Sequence record: SRR31156797_201
Strand: one strand, 5' to 3'
DNA length: 64,000 nt
In this document: positions 4,844-47,979 of the stretch, in pieces
Layout of the letters: the number at the start of each line of letters is the position of its first letter
Numbering within the stretch: the first letter of the stretch is position 1
Translations under genes and position numbers: made by a program
Notes under the pieces: generated by a model
Told to the model about the DNA's origin: nothing
Database searches by the model: none
Seen by the model: only the letters and a program-made list of their open reading frames with translations

Positions 4844-5085
4844 TATATTTTTGAGTAATTCTGGTTTATTAAGTAGTAACGAAGAATTTTTATAAAGATT
4901 ATAGAGATTAACACAGATTATTTTCTCTTCAGGGAATAAAAATAGTTAATAAATATCATAATTGTAAGCATTTTATGTAACAGTATGAAAAGGATTTCGT
5001 AATTTACTGTTGACGAATGGTTTTATATTTAATGTAAATACAGTTTTTGTAAAGATTTAACTACTTTAAATTTACTTGGAGAGAT

Positions 5086-6222: not shown

Positions 6223-6226
6223 CTTT

Positions 6227-24204: not shown

Positions 24205-24206
24205 GA

Positions 24207-29116: not shown

Positions 29117-29479
29117 ATGAAAAAAATACTTGTTGTTGACGATAAACCATCTATGAGCCAATTAATGGTTCGATTTCTACAAAACTCATTCGATGTAACC
29201 ACCAAGGATGATGGACTTAAAGCTATCTCATGGTTGCAATCTGGTAACATTCCAGATATCATTTTAACAGACCTACAGATGCCAAATATGGATGGTATCG
29301 AGTTAATCAAGCGAATTAAGGAAAGTGGATATTTTAATGATATTCCAATTATTGTTTTAAGTAGTCAGGAGAGTAGTAATGTGCGTGTTGAATGTCTTAA
29401 ACTAGGTGCGGAAGATTACATAATGAAACCATTTAATCCTGAAGAATTGATGATAAGAATTGAACGTTTGATTAAATAG
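29117..29479 (+). CDS. Single-domain response regulator (REC)
   Basis: MKKILVVDD, IILTD, LSS and KPF all intact; likely ATG at 29117. Confidence 0.92.
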   Translation: MKKILVVDDKPSMSQLMVRFLQNSFDVTTKDDGLKAISWLQSGNIPDIILTDLQMPNMDGIELIKRIKESGYFNDIPIIVLSSQESSNVRVECLKLGAEDYIMKPFNPEELMIRIERLIK

Positions 29480-29486
29480 AGATGTT

Positions 29487-30674
29487 ATGGAATCAGTAAA
29501 CAGACAAATGAAGTTGATGTATATTGGCTCTGATGATGTGGTTCTTTCCAAACTAAAAGGATTGAATGGAAGAGTTAATCTTGTGCACCATGCAAATCCA
29601 TTGGAAGCTTCTTCCTGGATTGAAAATAATGGGTTGGTTGATGGTGTTGTTTGTGAGTTGGAATTACCAGGACTGAATGGTTTGGACTATAATGATGTTT
29701 TTGTAAACAAGTTCGATGAGCAACAAAAGATACCATATATATTGTTGGTTGATGAAAAACAACCTGAAATCATTAAAAAAGCCATCCAGCAAAAAATTAG
29801 TGACGTATATACTAAGCCAGTTGATGCTGAAACCATAACTAATAGAGTAAACTTTCTCAAGGTTTTAACGGTGCATATGTCTTTTAATCAGGCAGAAGAA
29901 AACCAAAATGTTAAGGTATACAAAACTCCTTTCTTTAAGCGTACTTTCGATATCGTTTTTTCCAGTTTGGCACTTCTTGGATTATCTCCATTATTGTTGG
30001 CTTTTGTTATTGCTATTCGATTAGAATCCAAAGGAAAAGTGTATTACATATCTAAAAGAGTGGGTACAGGCTATCGAATATTTAATTTCTTAAAGTTAAG
30101 ATCTATGTATCCTGATGCAGACAAGAGATTAAAAGAATTGGAACATCTGAATCAATATCAAAGTGAGGAGAATGTGGAAGAAAATAACGTTGAGGAAGAA
30201 GGTGTTGAGGAAAATCAAGGTATAATATTGTTTGGTGATGAGGAAGAAGTAGCTGAAACAACACATATTAAGAGACAAAAAAACAAACAAGATAAGGCAT
30301 TTGTAAAATTTGAAAATGATCCTCGAATTACTAAGGTTGGTCATATCATACGAAAGTTAAGTATTGATGAATTGCCTCAATTGATAAATGTAATTCGTGG
30401 AGATATGTCAATTGTAGGTAATCGCCCATTACCATTGTATGAAGCGGAAATGTTGACTACCGATGAATGGACTGATCGTTTTAATGGTCCGGCAGGTATT
30501 ACCGGTTTGTGGCAAGTGGAAGCCAGAGGAAAATCTTCAAAAATGTCGCCTGAGGAGCGAAAAAGTTTGGATAATAAATATGTTGAAATTGCGAATAGTA
30601 GTTATTCATTTTGGAAAGATATTTGGATTATTCTACGAACGATACCCGCTGTTTTTCAAAAAGAAAACGTTTAA
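29487..30674 (+). CDS. Receiver-like domain fused to a priming phosphoglycosyltransferase (bacterial sugar transferase)
   Basis: N-terminal REC-like fold (ELPGLNG, KPVD); KRTFDI-TM, KLRSM, DPRITKVG, IDELPQL, GDMSIVGNRP and GITGLWQV. Confidence 0.9.
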   Translation: MESVNRQMKLMYIGSDDVVLSKLKGLNGRVNLVHHANPLEASSWIENNGLVDGVVCELELPGLNGLDYNDVFVNKFDEQQKIPYILLVDEKQPEIIKKAIQQKISDVYTKPVDAETITNRVNFLKVLTVHMSFNQAEENQNVKVYKTPFFKRTFDIVFSSLALLGLSPLLLAFVIAIRLESKGKVYYISKRVGTGYRIFNFLKLRSMYPDADKRLKELEHLNQYQSEENVEENNVEEEGVEENQGIILFGDEEEVAETTHIKRQKNKQDKAFVKFENDPRITKVGHIIRKLSIDELPQLINVIRGDMSIVGNRPLPLYEAEMLTTDEWTDRFNGPAGITGLWQVEARGKSSKMSPEERKSLDNKYVEIANSSYSFWKDIWIILRTIPAVFQKENV

Positions 30675-30684
30675 ATAAGCTTTT

Positions 30685-31422
30685 ATGAAATTAAGATTAT
30701 TGCTGTCCTTGTATGTGTTTTTTGCTGGAACTGGATATTCCACAGCCCAAAATATAGAGGATGTTGTGAATAAAACTGTTCAGGGAAATCAAGTTTCAGA
30801 TTTACTGCTACCGCTTAGCCAAATACAAGATTTGGCAATTCAAAATTCTCCATTGTTGAAATTATACGATTCCGAGATTGTAATTGGTCAATTAAAAATA
30901 AAGGCTGAGAAACGAGATTGGATGTCAAATTTGGGTTTTGAAGCCGGAGCAAAATATGGATTGTATGATAATTTGGTAATTACAGAAGATTTAGGCACAG
31001 GCGAGTCTAATACCTCAACTACGGAACAAACACGATATAGTGTTGGTGTATTTTTAAAAATTCCTCTTAACAATATTGCGGATAGGTCTAATGTAAGACA
31101 GGCAAAAGCTGAGTTGGAGAAAATTCGGTATCAAAAAGAAAATAGTGAACAAGAACTTCGTAAGTTAATTATTATACAATATAATAATGTTTTGAAATCA
31201 AACATGAGTTTGGAAATTAGGAATAAATCTTACGAAATGTTCAAATTACAGTTAATCAGATCTGAGAAAGATTTTGTGAATGGAAAAATTAATATCTCGG
31301 AATATTCAAAAGTACATGATATGACAGTAAGGGCAGAACTGGAATTTAACAATGTAAAAATTGAATTACGTACGGCCATTCAGGTGTTGAATGAAATTGT
31401 AGGAGCTCAGGTTACACTCTAA
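30685..31422 (+). CDS. Short TolC/OEP-like secreted protein
   Basis: Signal peptide STA-Q; LAIQNSPLL, two beta-strands ending LKIPL, then long helices as in one OEP repeat. Confidence 0.65.
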   Translation: MKLRLLLSLYVFFAGTGYSTAQNIEDVVNKTVQGNQVSDLLLPLSQIQDLAIQNSPLLKLYDSEIVIGQLKIKAEKRDWMSNLGFEAGAKYGLYDNLVITEDLGTGESNTSTTEQTRYSVGVFLKIPLNNIADRSNVRQAKAELEKIRYQKENSEQELRKLIIIQYNNVLKSNMSLEIRNKSYEMFKLQLIRSEKDFVNGKINISEYSKVHDMTVRAELEFNNVKIELRTAIQVLNEIVGAQVTL

Positions 31423-31433
31423 ATCTAATTATT

Positions 31434-33644
31434 TTGAATATTATATTCTTTATACGACTACTTCAGAAGCATATGCTAATATTGGTTATTACACCAATAA
31501 TGATGGCTGGGTTGGTATTTTTTCTTACCCAAAATCAACCAAGCAAGTTTGTTTCGCAAACAAAAATATATACTGGAATTGCAACAGGTTCATCAATTGT
31601 TTCACTTGAGGAATCAAAATTTGATTTGTTTGGAACAAGAACTGCTTTTGATAATCTAATTAACCTGATAAAATCGAAAACAACGATTGAAGAGGTTGGC
31701 TTGAAGCTGTTTACTCAGCATATGTTGTTGGATGAAGCCAAACAAGATGTTATTTTAAGAAATCATTATAACGAGCTGATGGCAATTGTTCCTGATGAGG
31801 TGAAGAATTTAGTTGTCAAGAATAATTTTGAAAAAACATATCACAATTTTTTGCAGTACAAGCAAAAGGATCATTCAAATTTTGTGAATGAATTAATTAA
31901 CCTAAATCACCGTCATTATAGTTCTAAAAAGATATTATCCAAAATTAAAGTAAGCCGTGTTCAATCGAGTGACATGATTGAAATAAAGTATGAATCTGAT
32001 GATCCAGGAATTTGTTCAGGAACCTTAAAGTTACTAAACGAGGTTTTTGTAAAAGTGTATTCCGATATTAAGGTAAATCAATCTGATGCTGTCGTTAGAT
32101 ATTTTCAAAAGGAAATTGAAGGAGCAAGAGCTTCTTTAAATGGAGCTGAGGAGGAGTTGGTAGAGTTTAACCGTAATCATAACATCATAAATTATTACGA
32201 ACAAACAAAACATATTGCATCTGAAAAAGAGCATTTTGATTTGATGTACACTCAAATTTTAATGGATCATGTTGCAGCCGAATCGGTATTGAAGGTCTTA
32301 GAAAGTAAGATGTCTGAAAGCGAAAAACGACGGATTAATAGCGATGAGATGATTGCTTTGAGGGATAGCTTGTCAGATGTAAATTATCAAATTTCGATGA
32401 AGATTAGTCGTTCAGAAATTTTTGGAGAGTTAAATGATGACGAAACTGAAAGACTGAATAGGTTAAAAACTAAAGCTGATGAGTTAACTCAATATCTTCG
32501 GAAAAATGTTGAAAAACAATTTGATTTAGATAATAGCATTGAGGGCTTAACGGGTAGTTCAATTCTTGATCAATGGTTGCAAAAAATGATAGAATTTGAG
32601 TCGTCACAAGCACAATTGGAAGTGGGAAAACAAATTACAAAAGAATTTGAAGAATTATTTGAAACCTATGCCCCTTTAGGTGCGAAGATGAAGCGTTTGG
32701 AACGAAAAATTGATGTAGCAGAGAGGAAATATTTATCGATGCTGAATAGTTTAAATACAGCAAAATTAAAACAACAGAACATTGAACTAAATTCGAATTT
32801 AAAGATTGTTGCAGAACCATTTTTTCCTATCGAGGCAGAACCTAGCAAGAGAAAGTTTCTATTAATTATAGCATTTATGGTTGGAGGAATAATTCCAGCT
32901 TTCATAATTTTAGCTTTGGAATTTTTGGATAGCAGTATCAAAACAGTTCATCGAGCCGAAGATAAAACAGGTTTGAAGGTAGCAGCTATGTTCCCTAAGA
33001 ATTTAAATAAAAATGATAAGTTGGATCATGAGTTTATAAATGGAAGAAGTCTGGATGTAATAGCCAGAAAACTGACATTGCTGAATCATAAAGAAGAAAA
33101 TGGTGGAGCTCACAAGATTCTTATATATAGTAACCTGAAGGGGGAGGGCAAGACTTATCTATCAAGTTTACTTTTTGAGAAATTTGAACAATTTGGTTTA
33201 AAAACATTGTTTGTAACTCCTCATGATATTGAAGCTCCTATCGGTTGTACTTGTATTAATTATCAGATTAAACCTAATTTTAATCGTTTATCTAGTATTC
33301 AGGATATTTTGAATGATACTGTAAATATCAATGATTTTGATTATGCTTTTGTTGAATTACCAGCAATTATCTCAAATGCTTATCCATTGAAATGGTTTAA
33401 AGAAGCTGATAATTCATTATTGGTACTTCGTGCAAATCGAGCTTGGACTGAAGCTGATGGCAATTCTTTAAGGGATATAGAATTGGTGAGTGAAGGAAAA
33501 CAATCACAAATAATACTTAATGGTGTGGAACTAACCGAAATGGAAAGTGTGTTAGGAGATTTGCCTAAAAAACGTTCATGGTTTAGGAGAGGAATTAAGA
33601 ATATTTTGAGATTACGCTTTTTCACCAATGCAAATATTCTATAA
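31434..33644 (+). CDS. Polysaccharide co-polymerase (Wzc/GumC-like) with degenerate kinase domain
   Basis: Two TMs flanking a periplasmic coiled coil; P-x3-P-S-K-R before TM2; Walker A-like SNLKGEGKT; TTG start. Confidence 0.85.
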   Translation: MNIIFFIRLLQKHMLILVITPIMMAGLVFFLTQNQPSKFVSQTKIYTGIATGSSIVSLEESKFDLFGTRTAFDNLINLIKSKTTIEEVGLKLFTQHMLLDEAKQDVILRNHYNELMAIVPDEVKNLVVKNNFEKTYHNFLQYKQKDHSNFVNELINLNHRHYSSKKILSKIKVSRVQSSDMIEIKYESDDPGICSGTLKLLNEVFVKVYSDIKVNQSDAVVRYFQKEIEGARASLNGAEEELVEFNRNHNIINYYEQTKHIASEKEHFDLMYTQILMDHVAAESVLKVLESKMSESEKRRINSDEMIALRDSLSDVNYQISMKISRSEIFGELNDDETERLNRLKTKADELTQYLRKNVEKQFDLDNSIEGLTGSSILDQWLQKMIEFESSQAQLEVGKQITKEFEELFETYAPLGAKMKRLERKIDVAERKYLSMLNSLNTAKLKQQNIELNSNLKIVAEPFFPIEAEPSKRKFLLIIAFMVGGIIPAFIILALEFLDSSIKTVHRAEDKTGLKVAAMFPKNLNKNDKLDHEFINGRSLDVIARKLTLLNHKEENGGAHKILIYSNLKGEGKTYLSSLLFEKFEQFGLKTLFVTPHDIEAPIGCTCINYQIKPNFNRLSSIQDILNDTVNINDFDYAFVELPAIISNAYPLKWFKEADNSLLVLRANRAWTEADGNSLRDIELVSEGKQSQIILNGVELTEMESVLGDLPKKRSWFRRGIKNILRLRFFTNANIL

Positions 33645-34985
33645 ATGTTAAATATCATTCGAAAAATAGTAAGAGAGAAAAATGTTTTGTCGCTATCAAC
33701 AAGTATACTGACAGCAGCTTTGGGCTTACTTGGATTCTTACTTCTCACAAGAGGTTTGAGTCAGAGTATGTTTGGAGATTGGGTGTTGTATACTTCATTG
33801 GCAACATTTGTTGATTTACTTCGGTTTGGATTAACAAGTACCGCCTTGGTTCGATTTGCCTCAGGTGGAAATGATGATCAAAAAAAGGCATATTTGGGCG
33901 CAAGCTTTAAAATCGGACTTTTTGTGGTTGGAGCGATAGTTATTATTCTTTGGACCATATTCTTTATCACTGCCAGTTTTGATATACAAATGAATAATGG
34001 CTACTATTTATTTTTGAAATGGTACCCAATTCTAGCTGTTTTAAATTTATCGTGGAACAATTCTGTTTCTTATTTTCAAGCGGGTCAGAATTTTAAATCC
34101 ATACTGTTTATTCGGTTAATTAACGTAGGGAGTTTTGTTCTTTTTCTGATTATAAACAATTTGTTTTTCCGTTTTGGAATCATTGAGATATTATATGCGC
34201 ACTTGGCTTGTAATTTATTACCTAGCATTCTGGTTTTTGTAAAAAAATGGGATGGATTACTTTACATTCGAAGAGCTACAAAAGAAACGGTTTCCGAGAT
34301 GCTGAATTTTGGTAAATTCTCCATGGGAACATTGGTAGGTTCGAGTTTGTTGCGCAGTGCCGATACCTTTATTATTGGTTTAAGCCCAGTTTTAGGATCC
34401 GTAGGTATTGCGCAATATGCCATTCCGTTAAAATTGACCGACCTTCTTGGAATACCTCTGCGTAGTTTTACGGTTACAGCATTTCCTAAAATGTCTAAAC
34501 TAAGCTTAGCTGGTAAAATTGATGAATTCAAAGATGTGTTTTATTCGTATAGTGGTGCAGTAACTTTCTTGTTTGTTCCAGTTGCTATCGGAGGATTTAT
34601 TTTTGCCGAACCATTGGTTTGGTTGCTTGGTGGCGATCAGTACAAAGATTCGTTACCATTGCTTGCTAATATCTTTAGAATCTTTTCTGTTTACTCCATA
34701 TTATTACCAATAGATCGATTTACTGGTGTTGCTTTAGACAGTATAAACCGACCAAAAATGAACTTTTACAAAGTGATTGTAATGACTTCAGCAAATATTA
34801 TAGGAGATCTTGTAGCTGTCTTCGTATTTCAATCTTTGCAGGCAGTCGCATTGGTTACGGTTGTATTTACTTTAATAGGTATTGTAATTGGATATACTTA
34901 TTTAAATAGGGAAATTAGGGTTAATATTTTGCAAGTAGCAAACGGAGGATTGATCTTTTTTAAGAATTTGAGAAGACATTTATAA
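33645..34985 (+). CDS. wzx: Wzx-type polysaccharide flippase (MOP family)
   Basis: About 12 TMs; LTRGLSQSMFG, FGLTSTALVRF, DTFIIG and GIAQY; EPS context. Confidence 0.82.
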   Translation: MLNIIRKIVREKNVLSLSTSILTAALGLLGFLLLTRGLSQSMFGDWVLYTSLATFVDLLRFGLTSTALVRFASGGNDDQKKAYLGASFKIGLFVVGAIVIILWTIFFITASFDIQMNNGYYLFLKWYPILAVLNLSWNNSVSYFQAGQNFKSILFIRLINVGSFVLFLIINNLFFRFGIIEILYAHLACNLLPSILVFVKKWDGLLYIRRATKETVSEMLNFGKFSMGTLVGSSLLRSADTFIIGLSPVLGSVGIAQYAIPLKLTDLLGIPLRSFTVTAFPKMSKLSLAGKIDEFKDVFYSYSGAVTFLFVPVAIGGFIFAEPLVWLLGGDQYKDSLPLLANIFRIFSVYSILLPIDRFTGVALDSINRPKMNFYKVIVMTSANIIGDLVAVFVFQSLQAVALVTVVFTLIGIVIGYTYLNREIRVNILQVANGGLIFFKNLRRHL

Positions 34986-34989
34986 TTCA

Positions 34990-36477
34990 ATGTATATGAG
35001 CAATGATTTTACCATTTCACGAGGAAGCGATATTCTAAGAAAACCAGTTTGGTTTATTGGCTTGCTTGCAATGATGCTGGTATTGTCTTTTATGATTGCT
35101 AAAGGTGGAATGGTTGCTGGTATTGGAATTATTCTTGTTCCTGGTATTTTAACAGCTGTATCGTTCATTTTCAAAATCCCTCGAGTTGGTTTAATTTTTA
35201 TTTACCTATTAAACTATGTAGTACTTGGTTTGGTGAGATATGTGAAGGGAATTCCTTTAGGGCTGAGTATTGATGGAATTCTGATAATGATATATCTGGC
35301 TTTATTCTTTAAATCTTTTTTTGAAAAAGTACCCTGGAAAAATGCAAAAAATGATTTGGTTGTATTGGCTGCTGTTTGGTTTGCTTATGCTATTTTTCAA
35401 TTGGTAAATCCAGAAGCTGTTAGTCGTGTGGCGTGGTTTTATGCTATGCGTGGAGTTGCATTTTATATGTTACTAATTATTCCAATTTTGTTTATTGTTT
35501 TTAATAAGCAAAAAGATTTGGATCTTTTCTTCAAAATGTGGGCTTGTTTGGCACTTTTAGGTTCATTTAAAGGAATAATGCAAAAGCATTTTGGCGTTGA
35601 CCCATGGGAACAGGCATGGCTTGATGGCGGTGGAGAACTTACACATATACTTTTCGGAAAATTAAGAGTTTTTTCATTTTTTTCAGATGCAGGACAGTTT
35701 GGTGCATCGCAAGGTCAGGCAGGTGTTGTTTTTGGAATACTGGCCTTAAATCGTGAGAAATGGGATAAGGTTAAAATATTTTATGGCATTGTGGCTTTTT
35801 TAGGTCTTTATGGAATGATGATTTCAGGAACTCGTGGGGCTATTGCAGTGCCAATTATGGGTTTTGCCTTGTATACTTTTCTAAGGAAAAATATACGTGT
35901 TATGATACTTGGAGCTCTTATGGGATTAATGGTTCTGGTATTTTTCAAATATACTACAATAGGTTCTAGTAATTATACAATCAATAGAATGCGCACTGCA
36001 TTCGATCCCAACGATGCTTCTCTACAAGTTAGGCTAGAGAACCAAAGAAGATTAAAAACCTATATGGCGAGTAGACCATTTGGAGGAGGTATTGGATCGG
36101 CAGGGAACTGGGGGCAACGATTTACTCCAAATACTTTTTTAGCAAATACACCAACAGATAGTTGGTATGTAATGATTTGGGCAGAACAAGGTATTGTGGG
36201 TTTAACTCTACACTTGTTTATTCTCTTTTATGTATTAGGTAAAGGAAGTTATTTGATCATGTTCAAATTAAGGGATAAGAGGTTAAAAATACAGATGATG
36301 GCATTAGCAGGAGGAATGTTTGGAATTATGGTTGCTTCATACGGGAATGGTGTCCTGGGGCAAATGCCCACTGGATTAATAATGTACTCAAGTATGGCTT
36401 TTTTGTTTTTAGCACCTAAACTCGATCAGGATATTGCAGATAAAAAAACTTTGGAAGAGAAAGATAAAACGACTTAA
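34990..36477 (+). CDS. wzy: Wzy polymerase / O-antigen-ligase family protein
   Basis: Multi-TM; SGTRGA, R..PFGGGIG and DSWYVMIWAEQGIVG. Confidence 0.8.
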   Translation: MYMSNDFTISRGSDILRKPVWFIGLLAMMLVLSFMIAKGGMVAGIGIILVPGILTAVSFIFKIPRVGLIFIYLLNYVVLGLVRYVKGIPLGLSIDGILIMIYLALFFKSFFEKVPWKNAKNDLVVLAAVWFAYAIFQLVNPEAVSRVAWFYAMRGVAFYMLLIIPILFIVFNKQKDLDLFFKMWACLALLGSFKGIMQKHFGVDPWEQAWLDGGGELTHILFGKLRVFSFFSDAGQFGASQGQAGVVFGILALNREKWDKVKIFYGIVAFLGLYGMMISGTRGAIAVPIMGFALYTFLRKNIRVMILGALMGLMVLVFFKYTTIGSSNYTINRMRTAFDPNDASLQVRLENQRRLKTYMASRPFGGGIGSAGNWGQRFTPNTFLANTPTDSWYVMIWAEQGIVGLTLHLFILFYVLGKGSYLIMFKLRDKRLKIQMMALAGGMFGIMVASYGNGVLGQMPTGLIMYSSMAFLFLAPKLDQDIADKKTLEEKDKTT

Positions 36478-36488
36478 AATAATCTACT

Positions 36489-37415: not shown

Positions 37416-37459
37416 TGCGTATCAATCTACTTTAGAGATTATATCACTAAATACTACTT

Positions 37460-38659: not shown

Positions 38660-38698
38660 TCTTTATTGACTATAAATAACTACTAACTTAAATTACTT

Positions 38699-41061: not shown

Positions 41062-41705
41062 GCGTATTAAATAAGATAAAAGGCAACCCTAAATTAAAGG
41101 CTTTTGTACTTTGGAGTATTGCACCAAAGCGAAATCCAAAACCTCGTTTATGGGTTCGATGGTTTCTAAATCCGTTTATTCATAAGAAAGGAAAAGGTGC
41201 TACAATTAGGCGAAGAAGTAGAATTGATGTATTTCCCTGGAATCGATTTGAAATAGGAAAACTAACAACAATCGAAGATTTCTGTACTGTGAATAATGGC
41301 TCAGGTCATGTTTTACTTGGCGATAGAGTTAGAATAGGGATTGGGAGCGTTGTAATTGGACCTGTAGAGATGGGAAGTGGCTCTGGATTAGGACAACATG
41401 TTTTCATTTCAGGATTTAATCATGGATATGAGGATGGGAGCAAAAATTCCAGTGTTCAGGAACTGGATATCAAACCAACTAAAATTGGTGAAGACTCGCA
41501 TATAGGTGCAAATTCGGTTGTGTTAGCGGGAGTTAAGATTGGTAAGCGTTGTCAGATTGGAGCAGGAAGTGTCGTTACCAAAGATATTCCTGATTTTTCG
41601 GTAGCTGTTGGGAATCCTGCAAAAGTGATCAAACAATTTAATCCTGATTCTAATAAATGGGAAAAAATTACTTCTCAGAAAGAAACTAAACAATCAACCT
41701 TATAG
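41058..41705 (+). CDS. Hexapeptide-repeat (LbH) O-acyltransferase
   Basis: IGEDSHIGANSVVLAGVKIGKRCQIGAGSVVTKDIP...GNPAK. Confidence 0.9.
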   Translation: MSVLNKIKGNPKLKAFVLWSIAPKRNPKPRLWVRWFLNPFIHKKGKGATIRRRSRIDVFPWNRFEIGKLTTIEDFCTVNNGSGHVLLGDRVRIGIGSVVIGPVEMGSGSGLGQHVFISGFNHGYEDGSKNSSVQELDIKPTKIGEDSHIGANSVVLAGVKIGKRCQIGAGSVVTKDIPDFSVAVGNPAKVIKQFNPDSNKWEKITSQKETKQSTL

Positions 41706-41745
41706 AAGGTAAAACAGAACTCAAAATCATAAAACTACTTGACTT

Positions 41746-42933
41746 ATGAAATATATAGAAATAACATTTTGGATTGCTCTTTTTATTATTTTTTATTCGT
41801 ATTTGGGATATGGTATTTTACTTTTCCTTATCATTAAATTAAGGCGACTGTTTGGTTTGTCGAAAGCTTATGAAGGCAATGATGATTATCAGCCTGAAGT
41901 TACACTGTTCGTAGCTGCTTTTAACGAAAAGGATTATGTAGATGAAAAGGTGAAAAATTCTCGCAGTTTAAATTATCCAACCAACAAAGTAAAGCAGGTT
42001 TGGGTTACCGATGGTTCGGATGATGGAACTCCTGAAATGTTAAGGAATTATGATGGTGTTGAAGTTTATCATGAAGATGCACGGGGTGGAAAGATTGGAG
42101 CTATGAATCGTGGAATGCAGTTTGTAAAAACGCCAATTGTTATTTTTTCGGATGGAAATACAACATTAGGAGAAGATTCCATACAGGAAATAGTCAATCT
42201 ATTTAAGAATCCAAAAGTTGGCTGTGTTTCGGGAGAAAAAAGAATTTACCAAAAAGATGCCGACGCTGCAGCCGGTGCCGGTGAAGGTTTGTATTGGAAA
42301 TATGAATCGACTTTAAAGAAATGGGATGCTGAATGGTATTCGGTTGTTGGTGCAGCTGGTGAGTTGTTTGCCATTAGAACCGAATTGTGGCAGGAAGTTG
42401 AGAAAGACACTTTACTTGATGACTTTATCATTTCTCTACGTGTTGCTATGTCTGGATATACCATTCAATACAATCCTAATGCTTATGCCATTGAAACAGC
42501 TTCGGCAAATGTAAAGGAAGAGTTGAAACGTAAGGTTAGAATTTCGGCTGGAGGAATTCAATCAGTTGTAAGATTAAGTCCTTTATTAAATCTCTTTAAA
42601 TTTGGACGATTATCCTTTCAGTACATTTCGCATCGTGTTTTACGATGGACTTTAACACCTCTGTTATTGCTATTTATTATTCCTTTGAATTTTGTTTTGG
42701 CGTATAATTCAGGAATGAATCCAACGAATATTTATACTCTGTTATTCTGCGGGCAAATGGTTTTTTATGCAGCAGCATTAATTGGTTGGTTTTTGGAGAA
42801 TCGTAGAATTAAGGTAAAGGCTCTGTTTGTTCCCTATTATTTCTTTATTATGAATTTGTCAGTTTATCTTGGCTTTCGAAGATATATTAAGGGCAATCAA
42901 TCTGTTAAGTGGGAGAGAGCTAAAAGAGGTTAG
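41746..42933 (+). CDS. Membrane-bound GT2 (PgaC/IcaA-like)
   Basis: N-terminal TM; VAAFNE, DGSDDGT, GKIGAMN, SDGN, LLDD and RKVRI; C-terminal TMs. Confidence 0.87.
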   Translation: MKYIEITFWIALFIIFYSYLGYGILLFLIIKLRRLFGLSKAYEGNDDYQPEVTLFVAAFNEKDYVDEKVKNSRSLNYPTNKVKQVWVTDGSDDGTPEMLRNYDGVEVYHEDARGGKIGAMNRGMQFVKTPIVIFSDGNTTLGEDSIQEIVNLFKNPKVGCVSGEKRIYQKDADAAAGAGEGLYWKYESTLKKWDAEWYSVVGAAGELFAIRTELWQEVEKDTLLDDFIISLRVAMSGYTIQYNPNAYAIETASANVKEELKRKVRISAGGIQSVVRLSPLLNLFKFGRLSFQYISHRVLRWTLTPLLLLFIIPLNFVLAYNSGMNPTNIYTLLFCGQMVFYAAALIGWFLENRRIKVKALFVPYYFFIMNLSVYLGFRRYIKGNQSVKWERAKRG

Positions 42934-43000
42934 TTTATTCTAGTTATGATATAAACATCTCTATTTTCATTTATCAATCAGATAAATTGAATGATACAGA

Positions 43001-43026
43001 AAAAGGAACGAATATTCGTTCCTTTT
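43001..43026. terminator. Bidirectional terminator between the EPS operon and the REC-HK gene
   Basis: Perfect 26-bp palindrome AAAAGGAACGAATATTCGTTCCTTTT. Confidence 0.85.
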
Positions 43027-43052
43027 GTGCTTTATGTAGATTACGTAAAAGG

Positions 43053-44180
43053 TTAATTTTTACTTACAGGTAATTGTATGATAAATTTACTTCCTTCTCC
43101 TAGTGTGCTTTCAACCAGTAATCGACCATTCATCTGAACAACAAAACTGTTGGCAACCTTAAGTCCTAAACCACTTCCTGATTCACCATTAGTTCCATAG
43201 GTTGAAAGATGTTCTTTTTCATTGAAGAGTTTTGGAAGGTCTTCTTCAGGTATTCCAATTCCCGAATCTGTGATTGTAATTTTAATTTCTCCGTTCTGAG
43301 TTTCTGCTTTTATACTAATTTCACCACCATCTGGTGTAAATTTAATGGCATTGGAAATGATGTTTTTCATGGTCATCTTCAACATGTAAGCATCGGTCTG
43401 AAGGTTGAGGTTTTCAGGAATATCGGGTGTGAAACTCAAATTTTTCATTGCAAGATTTCCCTTGAACATGAAATAGGTACTTTCAATTAAGTTTTCAATA
43501 GGTATATCTTCAGGAGTATATTTTAAAATGCCACTTTGAGATTTAGCCCAGCCTAAAAGGTTTTCTAACAGTTCATAAACCTCTTCGCTCGATTGTACTA
43601 GAGTTCCCATTGTATCCTTGTAATCATCACTATTAAACTCAAATAAGCCTTTCGAGAGCAATTCAAGTGTCATTTTTATATTACCTAACGGACCTCTAAG
43701 ATCATGACCAATTACAGAAAACATTTTATCTTTAAGTTCGTTAAGTTCACTTAAGTGGTTGGTTGTTTTTTGGAGTTCATCACGGGTGAATTTTAACTCT
43801 AAATGAGTTTTTATTCTAATGATTAGTTCTTCTTTATTGAATGGTTTAGTGATGTAATCAACTCCTCCCAATTCAAAACCTTTTACAATTTTTGATTTTT
43901 CACCAACAGCAGTTAAGAATATGATAGGTAGGTTTTCGTTCTTTTTATCTGATTTTAATATTTTACATACTTCGAACCCATCCATTTCTGGCATCATTAC
44001 GTCTAATAAAATTAAATCGGGTTGAGTTCGTTCAACCAAATCAATGGCATCTTTACCATTGGTTGCAATTACGATTTTAAAATTTAATTCGCGTAAAGTA
44101 AGTGCAACAATTTTAAGATTATTAGGATTATCATCAACTACTAATACAGTTGGTGTATTTCCGGGAATATTTATTTCCAT
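43053..44180 (-). CDS. REC-HisKA-HATPase hybrid kinase (N-terminal receiver, no sensor domain)
   Basis: VVDD, LLDVMMP, LTA and KPF; GHDLRGPL, NAIKFT, DSGIGI and GSGLGL. Confidence 0.92.
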   Translation of the reverse strand: MEINIPGNTPTVLVVDDNPNNLKIVALTLRELNFKIVIATNGKDAIDLVERTQPDLILLDVMMPEMDGFEVCKILKSDKKNENLPIIFLTAVGEKSKIVKGFELGGVDYITKPFNKEELIIRIKTHLELKFTRDELQKTTNHLSELNELKDKMFSVIGHDLRGPLGNIKMTLELLSKGLFEFNSDDYKDTMGTLVQSSEEVYELLENLLGWAKSQSGILKYTPEDIPIENLIESTYFMFKGNLAMKNLSFTPDIPENLNLQTDAYMLKMTMKNIISNAIKFTPDGGEISIKAETQNGEIKITITDSGIGIPEEDLPKLFNEKEHLSTYGTNGESGSGLGLKVANSFVVQMNGRLLVESTLGEGSKFIIQLPVSKN

Positions 44181-44414
44181 ATTCTTTTCTCGTAATTAAA
44201 ATAGAGTTTTTGGATACTACTAGTCTTGTTAACGAAATTAGATACGGAAAAACTCTTTCGAGGGTTAGATTTTTTAAGACTTTATTTTAAATAAATTAAA
44301 TCAAATGTAGAACTATGTTTGCTATCTTTCGTATTAATAATTTCATACTTAAACTGTTTGCATTTAACGTGTGATTTTAAAATATTGCTTACTACTTAAA
44401 ATAGACATCTGCTT

Positions 44415-44957
44415 ATGAAAGGATTGGTTTTTTGTGAATTTCTCGAAATGGTTGAAAAGGAATTCGGATACGAAATGGTTGATGAAATTATAGAAAAATC
44501 AAATTTACCTAGCAAAGGAATTTATACATCAGTTGGAACATATTCCCATGAAGAAATGTTTACTCTGGTTATGAATCTAAGTGATAAAACCAATATACCT
44601 GTATCAAAATTGTTTTATACGTATGGAGTGTATGTTTTTGGTGTATTTGGTAAGGCCTATAAAGAATTAATAGCTGGGCACACTGATGCTTTTCAGTTTT
44701 TATGCAGAGTGGAAGATACAATTCATGTACAAGTTTTAAAACTATATCCAGAAGCAGAATTGCCAAAAATTGCCACTAAGATACTTTCTAATAGTAAGAT
44801 GGAGATGATTTATACATCGCAAAGAAGAATGGCAGATTTTGCTGAAGGTTTAATTCAAGGATGCTTAAATCATTTTAAGGAAAAGGCAATTATTAGTAAA
44901 GAGATTCTTGTAGAGGATCAAACTCAAGTATTGTTTACAATTGAAAGAACCGTATGA
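44415..44957 (+). CDS. Stand-alone H-NOX (heme NO/O2-binding) protein
   Basis: MKG start, proximal His104 (TIHVQV), Pro117 and the YxSxR heme motif (Y133-S135-R137). Confidence 0.93.
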   Translation: MKGLVFCEFLEMVEKEFGYEMVDEIIEKSNLPSKGIYTSVGTYSHEEMFTLVMNLSDKTNIPVSKLFYTYGVYVFGVFGKAYKELIAGHTDAFQFLCRVEDTIHVQVLKLYPEAELPKIATKILSNSKMEMIYTSQRRMADFAEGLIQGCLNHFKEKAIISKEILVEDQTQVLFTIERTV

Positions 44958-47923
44958 GCAAGGAATTTGAATTGATAAAAAGAAAGCTTGGAAGAGAAAA
45001 AGAGGCTCGTAAGCAAGCAGAAAAACTTTTGGAAGAAAAATCGTTGGAGCTTTATGAATCAAACCAGCAACTGAAAAGTTTGAATAATAATTTGGAAGAT
45101 CTTGTTGAAGAGAGAACTCAAAAGCTTTTAGAAACTGAGCAGGAATATTTTACTTTAGTTGAAAGCATTACAGATATAATATGTAAAGTTAATCTTCGAG
45201 GACAAATTATATTTGTAAATCAGATTGCCAGTGAAATAATGGGACAATCGAAACAGAAATTACTTGGGAAAAATGTATTGAGTTTTGTTCCAATCGAATA
45301 TCGAAGAAAGATATTTAAATATTTCGCTCGTCAGTTTTTAAAGAATAAATGTATTAGCTATTTTGAATTGCCAATTCTTACCAGAAACGATACAATATTA
45401 TGGGTTAGAGTAAATGTGCAGTTCACAGAGGATAAATGCAAAGATTGCGAGTTAAAAAGGTGTTTTTTAGCTGGAGTAATGGATGAGGTAACCTCCCAAA
45501 ATAATTGTAATTTCAAAGAAATTATTATTGTTGCTCACAATATTACCGAAAGAAAGAAAAATGAATTTGAAATTGCACGAAACTTAAATCAACAAGAAAT
45601 TTTAACTGAAATATCGGTAAATTACAATTCCCTTGATGATTTTGAGAGTAGTACAAATGAAACCGTTCGTATAATTGGTGAACATACAGGTGTTAGTAGG
45701 GTTTATATTTTCGAGAATAGTATCGATGGAAAAATAACTAGCAACACTTATGAATGGTGTAATAAGGGAATAGAATCTAAAAAGGAAGAATTACAGAGTA
45801 TTCCATATGCTAGTATTCCTTCATGGAAAAAGTTATTGGAAGAGGAAGGTCTTATTTATTCGGAAACTATTGTTGATTTGCCTGATGATTTAAGAGTAAT
45901 TCTTGAACCACAAGGAATAAGGTCAATAATTGTTTTGCCATTAGTAATCTCAGGTAAAATGTTTGGTTTTATTGGCTTCGATGAATGCAATTCCAATCAT
46001 CCTTGGTCAAAATCAGAGATTGAATTACTAAGAACGATTAGTAGTATTATTTCCACCGCATTTTTGAGAAATCAAATTCAAACAAACCTTATTCTTAGTG
46101 AAAGAGAAAATCGTGGTATCATCAACTCAATTCCTGATGAAATTTTAAGATTAAGACGCGATGGAGAAGTAATTGCATTTCAATCAAAGTGTGAAGAAAG
46201 TTTATTTGAAAAGTTAAAAAATAAGGATGTAAATTCTATATGTGATGTCTTGAACGATGAATTGAGTAATTCATTTATTTCTGCAATTGAAGAGTGCCTT
46301 GTAAAAGGAGATTTCATGTTTAATTTTAGCAGTTTTAATCGGGATAAGATGTTGTACTCGGAGGCACGATTTGTTAAATTGAACTCGAAAGAAGTACTTG
46401 TGATAGTTAGGAATGTTACTGATTTAAAGGAGAAAGAAAAACAACTTCAGGTAGAAAAAAATAAGGCTGAACAGGCATCAAAAGCAAAATCGGAATTTCT
46501 AGCGAATGTATCTCATGAAATTCGAACTCCAATGAATGCGATTCTTGGCTTTAGTGAATGGTTGCATTCTAATGTCGAAAATCCTCAGCACAAGAATTAC
46601 CTACATACCATTTTAACTAGTGGAAGGAATTTATTAGCCTTGATTAATGATATTCTTGATCTGTCTAAAATTGAGTCAGGTAAAATGAATATTGAGTTGG
46701 AACCAATGCAATGCAAAATTGTAATCAATCAAATTAAACAGGTTTTTAAGCAGAAATTAGAGGTAAACAATTTAGCTTTTAATATAACGGTCGATAGTTC
46801 GGTACCTCAATACATCTATATGGATGAGGTGCGTTTTTACCAAATTCTATTTAATCTGGTAGGTAACTCCATTAAGTTCACCTCTAAAGGATACATTCAT
46901 GTTTCGGTTTCGGCAGTTAAGACTAGCGACCCTAATGCGATTAATTTATTTGTTAATGTAGAAGATACTGGAATTGGAATAAAGGAAGATCAACAAGAAA
47001 ATGTTTTTAAAGCTTTTACGCAGCAAAGTGGACAGAGTAATAGATATTACGAAGGAACCGGCTTAGGCTTAACGATTGTTGGAGGCTTACTTAAAAAGTT
47101 AAATGGAGAAATTAGTTTACAAAGTGAAGTTGGTCGTGGTTCTAAATTCACAATCAATTTTAAGGATGTAAAAATTGCAGAGATTTCAGCAGAGGAAGAT
47201 CAGCAAACAAAAGAATTGAATAATTTTACATTGGAGCCTTGTAAAATTCTAATAGTAGATGATTTAAAATTCAATATTTTGGTTTTGAAGAGAATTATAG
47301 AATTCAAAAATGTTACTTTCTTCGAAGCTGAGAATGGTGAGCAGGCTATTGAAATGATGGAAACTGAGCAACCGGATATTGTTTTTATGGATATCCGTAT
47401 GCCAGGGATGAATGGTTATGATGCAACTGAAGTGATAAAAAATAATGAAGATTGGAAGGATATTCCTGTAGTTGCCTTTACTGCATCAATTATGAATGAT
47501 GAACTGGATAGAATTCATGCTTTGTTCGATGAATATCTTCAAAAACCAGTTTTCAGAAAAGATGTATTTGGTGTACTTAAGCGCTTTTTGCCTTATCGAT
47601 ATATGGATGAAGTAGAAGCAGAAGTTGTAAAAGAGGAGGTGAAGCTCTCAGGAGAATGCATTGCTGTTTTACCGGAGGTAATATCCAATTTGGAAGATGA
47701 TTTTTTACCTGAATGGACTAAAATTAAGGACGATTTAATTATTTATGAAATCGAAAATTTTAGTAAAAATTTATCTGCATTTGCATTTAAGAAATCATGT
47801 GGAGTTTTAGATGAATATTGCAAGGAATTGGATATGGCCATTCAATCTTTTGATATTGAATTGATAGAAAAGCAACTTAGTGGTTTCGATATGGTAATTT
47901 CTGATTTAAAAACATATTTGTAA
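44954..47923 (+). CDS. H-NOX-associated hybrid histidine kinase (coiled coil-PAS-GAF-PAS-like-HisKA-HATPase-REC)
   Basis: ATGA overlap with the H-NOX gene; GAF (VSRVYIF, YEWC, GFIGFDEC); SHEIRTPMNA; GTGLGL; REC with VDD, FMD, TA and KP. Confidence 0.93.
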   Translation: MSKEFELIKRKLGREKEARKQAEKLLEEKSLELYESNQQLKSLNNNLEDLVEERTQKLLETEQEYFTLVESITDIICKVNLRGQIIFVNQIASEIMGQSKQKLLGKNVLSFVPIEYRRKIFKYFARQFLKNKCISYFELPILTRNDTILWVRVNVQFTEDKCKDCELKRCFLAGVMDEVTSQNNCNFKEIIIVAHNITERKKNEFEIARNLNQQEILTEISVNYNSLDDFESSTNETVRIIGEHTGVSRVYIFENSIDGKITSNTYEWCNKGIESKKEELQSIPYASIPSWKKLLEEEGLIYSETIVDLPDDLRVILEPQGIRSIIVLPLVISGKMFGFIGFDECNSNHPWSKSEIELLRTISSIISTAFLRNQIQTNLILSERENRGIINSIPDEILRLRRDGEVIAFQSKCEESLFEKLKNKDVNSICDVLNDELSNSFISAIEECLVKGDFMFNFSSFNRDKMLYSEARFVKLNSKEVLVIVRNVTDLKEKEKQLQVEKNKAEQASKAKSEFLANVSHEIRTPMNAILGFSEWLHSNVENPQHKNYLHTILTSGRNLLALINDILDLSKIESGKMNIELEPMQCKIVINQIKQVFKQKLEVNNLAFNITVDSSVPQYIYMDEVRFYQILFNLVGNSIKFTSKGYIHVSVSAVKTSDPNAINLFVNVEDTGIGIKEDQQENVFKAFTQQSGQSNRYYEGTGLGLTIVGGLLKKLNGEISLQSEVGRGSKFTINFKDVKIAEISAEEDQQTKELNNFTLEPCKILIVDDLKFNILVLKRIIEFKNVTFFEAENGEQAIEMMETEQPDIVFMDIRMPGMNGYDATEVIKNNEDWKDIPVVAFTASIMNDELDRIHALFDEYLQKPVFRKDVFGVLKRFLPYRYMDEVEAEVVKEEVKLSGECIAVLPEVISNLEDDFLPEWTKIKDDLIIYEIENFSKNLSAFAFKKSCGVLDEYCKELDMAIQSFDIELIEKQLSGFDMVISDLKTYL

Positions 47924-47943: not shown

Positions 47944-47979
47944 AAAAAGCTCGTAACAATAACTGTTACGAGCTTTTTT
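47944..47979 (+). terminator. Intrinsic terminator
   Basis: AAAAAGCTCGTAACA-ataac-TGTTACGAGCTTTTTT. Confidence 0.88.

Follow-up and report, generated by a model that had tools for sequence, protein, structure and literature searches.

The locus studied here raises the question of whether an NO signal can change exopolysaccharide (EPS) synthesis without c-di-GMP enzymes or a DNA-binding regulator, as its first-pass annotation had proposed. The window, that is, the whole stretch of 64,000 nucleotides that was analysed, comes from a marine Bacteroidota, Marinifilum sp. The genes of interest lie in three units delimited by terminator-like hairpins (Table 1), namely an EPS operon (29117-42933), a convergent gene for a REC-histidine kinase (REC-kinase, 43053-44180), and an operon of hnoX and a PAS-GAF hybrid kinase gene (44415-47923). 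Pfam and NCBIfam profile searches on 18 ORFs recovered every element of the claimed H-NOX, kinase and EPS gene set in its place. The count of four receiver-type domains also held in Pfam, with one of the four degenerate, and, as claimed, no HTH, GGDEF, EAL or HD-GYP domain was matched in the block's proteins (Pfam, E ≤ 1e-3). Furthermore, the 31 other window ORFs scanned gave no match to c-di-GMP enzyme families.

Table 1. Features of the EPS and H-NOX block in the Marinifilum window.
Feature	Position	Strand	Evidence
REC1, single-domain response regulator	29117-29479 (ORF from 29084)	+	Response_reg 107.5 bits (Pfam)
Putative pseudo-receiver (~1-135) and small monotopic phosphoglycosyl transferase core (151-391), predicted priming enzyme	29487-30674	+	Bac_transf (PF02397) 180 bits (cut-off 27 bits), Response_reg 31.0 bits (cut-off 30.2 bits)
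Half-length TolC-like outer-membrane protein, 245 aa	30685-31422	+	OEP 83.3 bits; kept after PGT in relatives
PCP/Wzz-like co-polymerase, 736 aa	31434-33644	+	Weak family matches only: TIGR03007 44 bits (far under cut-off), GNVR E = 0.0015; position conserved in relatives
Wzx-type flippase	33645-34985	+	Polysacc_synt_3 49.5 bits
Wzy-type polymerase	34990-36477	+	Wzy_C 42.2 bits
GT2	36489-37415	+	Pfam; orthologues within same locus type in relatives
GT2	37460-38659	+	Pfam; orthologues within same locus type in relatives
GT4	38699-39850	+	Pfam; orthologues within same locus type in relatives
GT4-like	39847-41061	+	Pfam; orthologues within same locus type in relatives
Hexapeptide acetyltransferase	41058-41705	+	Pfam; orthologues within same locus type in relatives
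GT2	41746-42933	+	Pfam; orthologues within same locus type in relatives
Hairpin, 11 pairs, terminator-like in both directions, between convergent EPS operon and REC-kinase gene	43001-43026		Sequence read, hairpin search
REC-HisKA-HATPase kinase, 375 aa, no sensor domain	43053-44180	-	Pfam
Stand-alone H-NOX, predicted NO type (no distal Tyr)	44415-44957	+	HNOB (PF07700) 139.8 bits (curated cut-off 25.5 bits), residues 2-160
Hybrid kinase: coiled coil, PAS, GAF, (PAS), HisKA, HATPase, REC, His-less HPt-like helical bundle (~870-989)	44954-47923	+	Pfam; tail from structure model
Terminator-like hairpin, 15 pairs, closing the hnoX-kinase operon	47944-47978	+	Hairpin search

The EPS operon is of the Wzx/Wzy type and comprises 12 genes with intergenic gaps of -4 to 44 nt. 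Its first gene encodes REC1, a canonical single receiver, and its second a fusion of a receiver-like domain to a small monotopic phosphoglycosyl transferase (small monoPGT, hereafter PGT). The ten genes after these encode a half-size OEP, a PCP-like protein, Wzx, Wzy, three GT2 and two GT4-type proteins and one hexapeptide acetyltransferase. Operons of this type carrying REC1-PGT are widespread in Bacteroidales, and REC1 was found directly upstream of the PGT gene in 32 of 35 loci, on the other side in one, while two loci were cut by contig ends. Alignments of REC1 orthologues begin with the Met encoded at 29117. Across 32 sequences D52 (the acceptor), K104, P105 and a KPFNPEEL motif are invariant, D8, D9 and S82 are at least 90% conserved, and Pfam placed no output domain on the protein. 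In the PGT N-domain, the window sequence has Glu at the acceptor site (end of beta3), as do 28 of 36 orthologues, whereas 4 have Asp, 2 Ser and 2 a gap; the Thr/Ser position (beta4) holds A, V, D or H, the Lys of beta5 is present in 14 of the 36, and Pro follows that position in 30. A canonical response-regulator receiver is ruled out here by the Glu acceptor and the missing conserved Thr/Ser, and the residue pattern identifies the fused domain as a putative pseudo-receiver. For the same two reasons, the earlier proposal that phosphate is transferred to the protein at 29487 is unlikely to be correct. The catalytic core has D294-E295-L-P-Q and 60+ other positions invariant in 32 orthologues, and we take the Asp-Glu pair to have the catalytic role known from PglC work; TIGR03025 scored 227.6 bits on this protein, under its cut-off (NCBIfam).

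A predicted complex of pseudo-receiver residues 1-140 and REC1 placed REC1 on the pseudo-receiver with an ipSAE of 0.61 (best of three controls, 0.00). In the benchmark, solved complexes attained this mark in 51 of 78 cases and mismatched pairs in 2 of 108, while 7 of 44 blind neighbour pairs passed too. The model was computed without supplied alignments, and part of its score may be memory because the solved structures include many receiver-receiver dimers. The runs agreed on 100% of contacts with a partner pLDDT of at least 89, and the residues that are most conserved in either partner fall within the modelled interface (one side, D106, R120 and L124; opposite side, G43, S70 and G71). On this model, the pseudo-receiver more likely serves to dock REC1 than to accept phosphate.

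As the kinase of REC1 we propose the REC-kinase, which would be gated via its own receiver. It lies within about 22 kb of the REC-PGT gene in at least 14 of 67 genomes of the order, and is a more general partner of the EPS locus than H-NOX. In G255, G267 and G271 (genomes are designated by G numbers) it sits at the 3' end of the operon. In G096, G221 and G354 the three genes are contiguous with the kinase immediately upstream of REC1-PGT, an arrangement that fits one step, 43053 to 29117, of the relay suggested earlier (44954 to 43053 to 29117/29487), whereas 29487 as its target is the unlikely part. Because the architecture of this kinase is so common (163 of 301 genomes match at E ≤ 1e-45, often with several copies per genome), the orthology of distant copies is uncertain.

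On the input side, hnoX overlaps the hybrid kinase gene by 4 nt. Among solved chains, 6bde and 6ocv come closest to the window H-NOX (E about 1e-42), ahead of the Shewanella oneidensis H-NOX chains 2kii and 4u99. In the alignment with solved Shewanella H-NOX, the proximal His corresponds to H104 and the YxSxR motif to Y133-T-S135-Q-R137, positions that we take, as established knowledge, to serve in heme ligation and propionate binding. The alignment offset (1-160 to 1-158; H104 to H102) upheld the earlier matching of F9 and F142 to positions 9 and 140 of Tt H-NOX, where the Tt protein has W9 and Y140. According to the available part of PMC8738867, a distal-pocket Tyr is required for O2 binding in H-NOX. 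The window protein, without this Tyr, is predicted from its sequence to belong to the NO-selective subclass.

The C-terminus of the hybrid kinase gave no match to Hpt (PF01627) even at E ≤ 10. The best structural matches of the modelled tail (pLDDT 76.7) were HPt domains, with Z 11.2 to 9 (1sr2, Z 11.2, rmsd 2.7, 90 aligned; 3myf, Z 10.2); generic helical bundles reached Z 8-9, all Foldseek E values were >0.001, and the HPt-like label denotes a moderate structural match only. This HPt-like tail is His-less: window residues ~863-989 contain no His, and none is invariant across seven orthologues. The first-pass annotation had spoken of a phosphorelay, and since the block holds no His-bearing Hpt, the chain is not a classical His-Asp-His-Asp relay. 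Stand-alone Hpt proteins are encoded elsewhere in Marinifilum and could carry the signal away from the EPS locus. Moreover, H-NOX need not dominate the hybrid kinase, because the latter has PAS and GAF inputs of its own.

The expected synteny was found: in three different arrangements, orthologous H-NOX and hybrid kinase genes adjoin an EPS locus of this type. In Marinifilum the pair is downstream of the EPS operon (on one contig in 8 of 10 family genomes, 15.5-18.5 kb apart), in G354 it is upstream and divergent, and in G278, a member of another family, it is upstream and co-directional. The locus-linked orthologues share 50-55% (H-NOX) and 42-51% (hybrid kinase) identity, the G278 hybrid kinase being 42% identical over the full length. 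Recurrence in three different gene orders argues for real wiring. As a general part of the EPS locus, H-NOX did not stand, since it was not found in 60 of the 67 order genomes with the PGT, nor in 21 of the 32 family genomes with it. It is a lineage-specific add-on, and most loci are without it.

The best explanation, to which we give about an even chance, is a two-component cascade attached to the Wzx/Wzy EPS operon, through which an NO signal would change EPS priming at the enzyme level. Its observed parts are domain content, residue patterns and synteny; each of the phosphotransfers, the binding of NO and the sign of regulation are inferred. The core common to many genomes would consist of the sensor-less REC-kinase, REC1 and the small monoPGT with its pseudo-receiver N-terminus. 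The REC-kinase would phosphorylate REC1, and REC1~P would dock on the alpha4-beta5-alpha5 face of the pseudo-receiver and thereby change the activity of the priming enzyme, gating polymer synthesis at the first committed step, as EpsW~P does with EpsZ in Myxococcus. The PAS/GAF hybrid kinase would modulate the REC-kinase via the receiver of the latter, by direct His-to-Asp transfer or docking, because the hybrid kinase has an HPt-like tail that lacks a His. This kinase would, in Marinifilum, G354 and G278, have acquired a translationally coupled NO-type H-NOX, which in its NO-bound form would inhibit the kinase, by analogy with HnoK, HqsK and HahK, and NO would thereby act on EPS priming independently of c-di-GMP. 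An additional transcriptional branch via an unlinked NtrC-type activator is likely. A purely protein-level form of gating is more doubtful. Here, NO-H-NOX would shut the hybrid kinase, with the His-less tail as a docking scaffold, and reset the REC-kinase, and the change in REC1~P would make or break a receiver/pseudo-receiver heterodimer on the small monoPGT. If true, this would be an NO output free of both c-di-GMP and transcription, and a new way of regulating monomeric PGTs.

It is possible, at well under an even chance, that the signal acts mainly on transcription, as the Syp system of Vibrio fischeri does. The H-NOX/hybrid kinase and the REC-kinase would then feed an NtrC-type sigma-54 activator of the EPS operon that has moved out of the Marinifilum cluster, with REC1 and the pseudo-receiver-PGT separate or secondary. 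An NtrC-type REC-AAA-HTH_8 gene indeed follows the REC-kinase directly in G278, G168 and G157, and the claimed lack of a DNA-binding regulator thus holds for the window block but fails for these three genomes. In three of four Marinifilum genomes, 35-38 kb separate the PGT gene from the best NtrC orthologue (49% identity; paralogues reach at most 40%), which stands beside a REC-PAS kinase, and the chain from HahK through the SypF Hpt to SypG provides a precedent (available parts of PMC12369376 and PMC8738867). However, no sigma-54 activator gene is present in the block or elsewhere in the window, the NtrC orthologue of G005 is 218 kb away, and the near-universal pairing of REC1 and pseudo-receiver would be left unexplained. 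A simple scan for -24/-12 patterns found nothing upstream of REC1, hnoX and the REC-kinase gene in the window; it is uninformative either way because it was empty in G278, G168 and G157 too.

We consider it improbable that there is no signalling link at all, with the hnoX-hybrid kinase operon signalling via an unlinked Hpt to other targets (e.g., an Hpt-STAS-REC-PP2C partner-switching operon), the adjacency reflecting conserved gene order, and only the REC-kinase, REC1 and PGT belonging to the EPS locus. Unrelated downstream genes in Marinifilum (a 789-aa protein, patatin-Omp85, DUF6268, ornithine decarboxylase) are equally syntenic, hybrid kinases as a rule depend on an Hpt and His-bearing Hpt genes occur only elsewhere, and in G085, G246 and G293 related H-NOX genes (41-46% identity) are paired with short hybrid kinases on contigs other than that of the EPS locus. 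Nevertheless, the adjacency spans three gene orders in two families, the REC-kinase is on the H-NOX side in Marinifilum and G278 but on the REC1 side in G354, and analogous hybrid GAF/PAS kinases adjoin the REC-kinase in the same place at loci without H-NOX (G140, G067 and G215). Least probable by far is that REC1, which has no output domain, is a phosphate sink or competitor for the REC-kinase, like DifD in the Dif/EpsW pathway among the single-domain receivers serving as sinks in related systems (PMC12802240, available part), and that the pseudo-receiver is merely a structural or oligomerisation domain, given the strict gene pairing of REC1 and pseudo-receiver-PGT, their identities among Marinifilum species (95-97% for REC1 versus 78-82% for the PGT) and the conserved residues of both partners in the predicted interface.

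Returning to the enzyme-level cascade, its output had been presented as undescribed, but both halves are published, EpsW~P-EpsZ in PMC12802240 and HnoX-HahK-Syp in PMC12369376 and PMC8738867, as far as the available parts of these papers go; what is new is the combination of two recently described control schemes. For Myxococcus xanthus, post-translational activation of EpsZ by EpsW~P is described (Schwabe et al., mBio 2025, PMC12802240, available part), and the likeness is that a phosphorylatable single-domain regulator controls the initiating monoPGT of a Wzx/Wzy EPS pathway, by direct contact in the case of EpsW and by a contact proposed from the complex model here, in a step without c-di-GMP or DNA binding. 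Dimerisation activates EpsZ, a large monoPGT, whereas the window enzyme has a small monoPGT core and an N-terminal pseudo-receiver, the likely docking site. The dimerisation mechanism is not simply transferable because small monoPGTs are reported as monomers in the same source, which also credits O'Toole et al. 2021 with having already noted receiver-small monoPGT fusions. The window PGT is not itself an EpsZ-type large monoPGT (4-TMH bundle, DUF and catalytic domain, no dimerisation beta-hairpin), as its 395 aa hold only the receiver-like domain and the catalytic core; it is at most EpsW/EpsZ-like in its working, not a member. Further, in that source the kinase acting on EpsW is DifE, a CheA-like protein from a chemosensory system, whereas the window has a REC-HisKA kinase encoded at the locus. 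Unlike in the EpsW-EpsZ pair, only 7 nt separate the regulator gene from the PGT gene, and hnoX lies near the window locus, whereas no H-NOX input is known for EpsW.

With HnoX-HahK-SypF-SypG/SypE of V. fischeri, the locus shares an NO-type hnoX just upstream of a hybrid kinase gene and a locus-encoded exopolysaccharide controlled through other two-component proteins, and G278, G168 and G157 resemble Syp further in their sigma-54 activator, like SypG. Syp signalling runs through the SypF Hpt and SypG, a DNA-binding protein, with hnoX-hahK outside the syp locus (PMC12369376 and PMC8738867, in the parts available), whereas the window block has no Hpt His and no activator, and its terminal components would be REC1 and the pseudo-receiver on the priming enzyme. 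The HnoK network (Shewanella oneidensis, Vibrio cholerae) and HqsK (V. harveyi, V. parahaemolyticus) pathways have as their final components c-di-GMP enzymes or LuxU, an Hpt of quorum sensing, according to the accessible text of PMC8738867, and neither is encoded in the window. What they share with it is a stand-alone H-NOX without distal Tyr whose gene overlaps a histidine kinase gene. Plant PRR/TOC1 pseudo-receivers have Glu at the acceptor site, and Arabidopsis AHP6 is a pseudo-Hpt without His; there, as is predicted here, signalling fold and partner surfaces are kept while the phospho-accepting residue is lost. Unlike these plant proteins, the window would unite a pseudo-receiver and an HPt-like, His-less domain (HPt-like by a moderate structural match) in one bacterial pathway, with the former being part of a membrane glycan-priming enzyme.

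Closest to the window is an uncultured Marinifilum, whose H-NOX is 97% and whose flanking proteins are 94-99.6% identical to those encoded here. ORF listing, Pfam and NCBIfam bore out the gene anatomy that the first-pass annotation had given for the block at 29117-47923, namely an exopolysaccharide (EPS) operon, a REC-HisKA-HATPase kinase gene without a sensor domain (REC-kinase) and an hnoX-hybrid kinase operon. The EPS operon, with intergenic gaps of -4 to 44 nt, encodes a single receiver (REC1), a fusion of a receiver-like domain to Bac_transf (the small phosphoglycosyl transferase, PGT), a 245-aa half-TolC-like OEP protein, a 736-aa PCP-like protein, Wzx, Wzy, three GT2 enzymes, two GT4-type enzymes and one hexapeptide acetyltransferase. 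A 234-nt spacer separates the REC-kinase gene from the divergent hnoX. No match to the HTH, GGDEF, EAL or HD-GYP families was found by Pfam in the proteins of the block, and c-di-GMP enzyme families were likewise without a match in 31 other window ORFs scanned. A sigma-70 promoter scan, whose coverage does not extend to Bacteroidota promoters, gave 79 matches, fewer than the mean of 87.7 in shuffles. The export part has the half-length TolC-like protein and the PCP-like protein, the latter with weak family matches only, and the two are conserved as a pair 3' of PGT in relatives; no Wza/OPX is present. Elsewhere in the window, a CusA/CzcA-type RND permease is fused C-terminally to an outer-membrane factor domain, an unusual joining of inner- and outer-membrane components. 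Another fusion protein combines a patatin-like phospholipase with POTRA and an Omp85 barrel (PlpD-like architecture), and its gene is kept 3' of the kinase operon in every Marinifilum locus.

Features of the block, of the rest of the window and of Marinifilum genome G002 that are discussed in the text
Feature	Sequence	Position	Strand	Remarks
FIST_N/FIST_C protein and PAS-PAS-HisKA-HATPase-REC hybrid kinase genes	window	5086-8374	+	FIST gene directly upstream
RND permease-OEP fusion and HlyD-type adaptor genes	window	23101-28553	-	fusion of 1448 aa; ACR_tran 5-1035, OEP 1280-1447; adaptor gene next
EPS operon	window	29117-42933	+	12 genes
REC1 gene	window	29117-29479	+	single receiver
PGT gene	window	29487-30674	+	pseudo-receiver fused to small monotopic phosphoglycosyl transferase
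Export part of EPS operon	window	30685-33644	+	TolC-like and PCP-like proteins
Hairpin	window	43001-43026		11 pairs; between EPS operon and REC-kinase gene
REC-kinase gene	window	43053-44180	-	REC-HisKA-HATPase; convergent with EPS operon
hnoX	window	44415-44957	+	4-nt overlap with hybrid kinase gene
Hybrid kinase gene	window	44954-47923	+	989 aa; PAS-GAF-HisKA-HATPase-REC
Hairpin	window	47944-47978		15 pairs; ends hnoX-hybrid kinase operon
Patatin-POTRA-Omp85 gene	window	51521-53731	+	downstream of kinase operon
Second, divergent H-NOX gene	G002:C1:300807-320800	about 9929-10483	-	about 30% identity
Hpt, STAS and REC-PP2C (SpoIIE) operon	G002:C165:195000-204000	4289-6700	+	stand-alone Hpt of 159 aa

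PGT orthologues were collected from 35 loci of four Marinifilum genomes and a sample of the order, giving an alignment of 36 sequences. At the acceptor position of the N-terminal domain (window residue 57, in VVCELELPG), Glu is present in 28 of 36, Asp in four and Ser in two, with a gap in the remaining two; the beta4 Thr/Ser position is occupied by A, V, D or H, and the beta5 Lys is kept in 14 of 36. In REC1, D52, K104, P105 and the KPFNPEEL motif are invariant among 32 sequences, and D8, D9 and S82 are found in at least 90%. The N-terminal domain of PGT is thus a pseudo-receiver. With Glu usually at its acceptor position and the beta4 Thr/Ser missing, direct phosphorylation of PGT, one of the transfers postulated earlier, is unlikely; judged by its residues, REC1 is the phosphorylatable partner. 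The REC1 gene lies directly 5' of the PGT gene in 32 of the 35 loci, and on the other side in one, contig ends truncating the remaining two. Identity between Marinifilum species is 95-97% for REC1 and 78-82% for PGT. PGT retains an intact catalytic core, with DELPQ present and over 60 positions invariant. An insertion at residues ~208-270 of its catalytic domain carries a four-Cys motif (CPxC...CSP...ICE) in most orthologues; Marinifilum and a few others have an acidic, Cys-free stretch in its place.

We then modelled PGT residues 1-140 with REC1 in three runs with three controls, predicted without alignments of our own. The complex score was 0.61 (best control 0.00). Solved complexes attain this mark in 51 of 78 cases and mismatched pairs in 2 of 108. 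The score is to be read with two facts in mind: solved structures often contain receiver dimers, and in the method's own test 7 of 44 blind neighbour pairs also passed. All runs agreed in 100% of contacts, with partner pLDDT of at least 89. In the model, residues 96-134 of the pseudo-receiver (alpha4-beta5-alpha5) pack against REC1 loops 34-45 and 66-72, and the predicted interface includes D106, R120 and L124, three of the eight near-invariant positions of the pseudo-receiver, and near-invariant G43, S70 and G71 of REC1. The model supports binding of REC1 to the pseudo-receiver of PGT.

To place the signalling genes, an order sample of 301 genomes centred on G002 (Marinifilum) was used. PGT was found in 67 of them (E<=1e-30), and REC-HisKA kinases of the 375-aa type in 163 (E<=1e-45), often several per genome. 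According to compared coordinates and the regions read, at least 14 of these 67 genomes have a REC-kinase no more than about 22 kb from PGT, in varied positions: contiguous with REC1 and PGT (G096, G221); last in the operon or just after GT2c (G255, G267, G271); convergent with or following the operon, with GAF/PAS hybrid kinases and no H-NOX (G140, G067, G215); convergent at about 19 kb, where no hybrid kinase was seen (G137); some 10 kb upstream, with an NtrC-type activator after it (G157); at about 21 kb (G082); or linked with an H-NOX in the same cluster (G002, G278, G168). EPS loci of this type therefore have the REC-kinase, usually with an adjoining hybrid kinase, as their general signalling partner. 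Identities of linked (35-56%) and unlinked (about 40-44%) copies overlap, so distant copies are regarded as putative orthologues.

The order EPS operon, REC-kinase, hnoX, hybrid kinase is kept in 8 of 8 readable Marinifilum loci; one contig starts at the REC-kinase, leaving the EPS side outside. Unrelated genes downstream of the kinase operon are equally conserved in these loci, and the Marinifilum order alone therefore shows colinearity only. The decisive cases come from two other lineages. G278 belongs to a different family from G002 (its family sample of four genomes does not include G002), and its H-NOX and hybrid kinase are 50% and, over the full length, 42% identical to those of the window. 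There, hnoX, the hybrid kinase, a 162-aa REC, the REC-kinase, an NtrC-type REC-AAA-HTH_8 protein and DUF4114/DUF4842 are followed on the same strand by REC1, PGT, OEP, PCP, Wzx, Wzy, an insertion and GTs. In G354, which is of the same family as G002 and not Marinifilum-like in identity, the hybrid kinase and hnoX are divergent from UDP-glucose dehydrogenase, an epimerase, REC-kinase, REC1, PGT, OEP, PCP and onwards. The position of the REC-kinase thus varies between the H-NOX side and a place directly 5' of REC1. The Marinifilum, G278 and G354 arrangements therefore place the same sensor/kinase pair at the EPS locus in three gene orders, and the linkage proposed earlier is better supported than by neighbourhood alone. 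Furthermore, orthologous H-NOX (at least 54% identity) occurs in 11 of 96 family genomes, all 11 of which have PGT; in nine it lies on the same contig, 4.3-18.5 kb apart, and in two H-NOX is at a contig edge.

Several findings speak against a general link of H-NOX to the EPS locus. H-NOX was found in 22 of the 301 order genomes, and most PGT-bearing genomes are without it: no match was obtained in 60 of 67 at order level, and the orthologous H-NOX was missing in 21 of 32 at family level. In G085, G246 and G293, H-NOX (41-46% identity) is paired with short HisKA-HATPase-REC kinases beside histidine-utilisation or other genes, on contigs separate from that of the EPS locus, and G082 has an H-NOX of another type on another contig. 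An MCP-adjoining H-NOX in G168, about 2 kb from GT genes of the locus, was rejected as a fourth linked case; it represents a different subfamily, since it gave no tblastn match to the window or G278 H-NOX at E<=1e-8. In the same genome, contigs C5 and C202 (regions L124 and L125) appear to abut in a split NtrC gene (residues 8-355 are encoded at the start of C5, residues 338-461 at the end of C202), which would give one 40-kb EPS/signalling cluster when joined.

The best solved relatives of the window H-NOX are 6bde/6bdd and 6ocv (E about 1e-42), followed by Shewanella oneidensis H-NOX. H104 aligns with the proximal His and Y133-x-S135-x-R137 with the YxSxR motif. By coordinate offsets (1-160 to 1-158), F9 and F142 fall at positions 9 and 140 of the Thermoanaerobacter/Caldanaerobacter H-NOX, where the residues are W9 and Y140. 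According to PMC8738867, O2-binding H-NOX require a distal Tyr, and the lack of it marks the NO-specific class of facultative anaerobes; the earlier prediction, from F9 and F142, that this protein is NO-selective therefore stands. Marinifilum genomes have a second, divergent H-NOX with no adjoining kinase, its neighbours being esterase, YceI and LpoB-like genes. The FIST protein encoded upstream of another hybrid kinase in the window, whose sole NCBIfam match is NosP (68 bits, far under the cut-off of 450), could be part of a second gas- or NO-type sensor-kinase pair within these 64 kb.

The hybrid kinase tail (about residues 870-989) has no Hpt match in Pfam even at E<=10, where matches are noise; it contains no His in the window and no invariant His in seven orthologues. 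The chain is thus no classical His-Asp-His-Asp relay, and the earlier term phosphorelay needs correction. In the predicted structure of the tail (pLDDT 76.7 overall, 83-92 over the bundle), the best match is RcsD/YojN 1sr2 (Z 11.2, rmsd 2.7, 90 residues aligned), followed by Shewanella 3myf (Z 10.2) and by plant AHPs, HptB, BarA and ArcB (Z about 9), with unrelated helical bundles at Z 8-9; Foldseek against PDB gave no match at E<=0.001. The model suggests that the tail is probably a His-less HPt-like domain. His-bearing Hpt proteins are encoded elsewhere in Marinifilum genomes, three per genome, one of them (159 aa) in an operon with STAS and REC-PP2C proteins. This operon forms a partner-switching module and could take up phosphate from Hpt-less hybrid kinases. 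The G168 EPS locus has a REC-SpoIIE gene between its hybrid kinase and REC-kinase.

The absence of a DNA-binding regulator claimed in the first-pass annotation holds for the block, which has no HTH, but not necessarily for the system, given that in G278, G168 and G157 the REC-kinase has an NtrC-type activator as its neighbour. In Marinifilum, the best orthologue (49% identity; paralogues reach at most 40%) adjoins a REC-PAS kinase 35-38 kb from PGT in G002, G003 and G004 and 218 kb from it in G005; at 35-38 kb it would lie just outside the window. No -24/-12 pattern (TGG-N9-[TC]GC) was found upstream of REC1, hnoX or REC-kinase in the window, G278, G168 or G157, and three Marinifilum loci had a doubtful match only. 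As even the NtrC-bearing relatives gave no match, the scan is uninformative on sigma-54 control.

Starting from the observed parts, residue patterns and linkage of the module, we propose that the hybrid kinase would act on the receiver of the REC-kinase, and that NO-bound H-NOX would reduce hybrid kinase activity, as for HnoK, HqsK and HahK (PMC8738867). The REC-kinase would in turn phosphorylate REC1, and phosphorylated REC1 may dock on the pseudo-receiver and change the priming activity of PGT. If true, this would be an NO output needing neither c-di-GMP nor quorum-sensing components. The module is common (67 of 301 sampled order genomes), and the versions in Marinifilum, G354 and G278 have in addition a defined input that can be tested, NO via H-NOX. 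Because of this input, and because some Marinifilum species are cultured, they offer a convenient experimental entry point for the whole family.

Post-transcriptional throttling of Wzx/Wzy polysaccharide pathways is poorly understood. To our knowledge, the first clear case is EpsW-EpsZ, from 2025. In this system, a phosphorylated single-domain regulator activates the priming PGT post-translationally, and its authors propose that such control is widespread, state with reference to O'Toole et al. 2021 that receiver domains can occur on small monoPGTs, and caution that activation by dimerisation may not hold for small PGTs that are monomeric (PMC12802240). On the input side, the syp polysaccharide locus of V. 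fischeri is under NO/HnoX control through a hybrid kinase (PMC12369376; PMC8738867). Both halves of the output once thought undescribed have thus been reported. Our literature searches found nothing on H-NOX in Marinifilum and no 'pseudo-receiver' among the leading matches for glycosyltransferase or exopolysaccharide in Bacteroides, and the monoPGT superfamily preprint (PMC11257628) makes no mention of receivers. EpsZ is a dimeric large PGT, whereas the window enzyme is a small PGT with a built-in pseudo-receiver; the Bacteroidales module would, if the proposal is true, extend the EpsW-EpsZ principle to small, monomeric PGTs via the pseudo-receiver. The finding is a new combination, or variant, of two known schemes and not a new kind of system: it brings together input through H-NOX, an intermediate REC-kinase, a small PGT with its receiver/pseudo-receiver pair and the probable His-less HPt-like tail.
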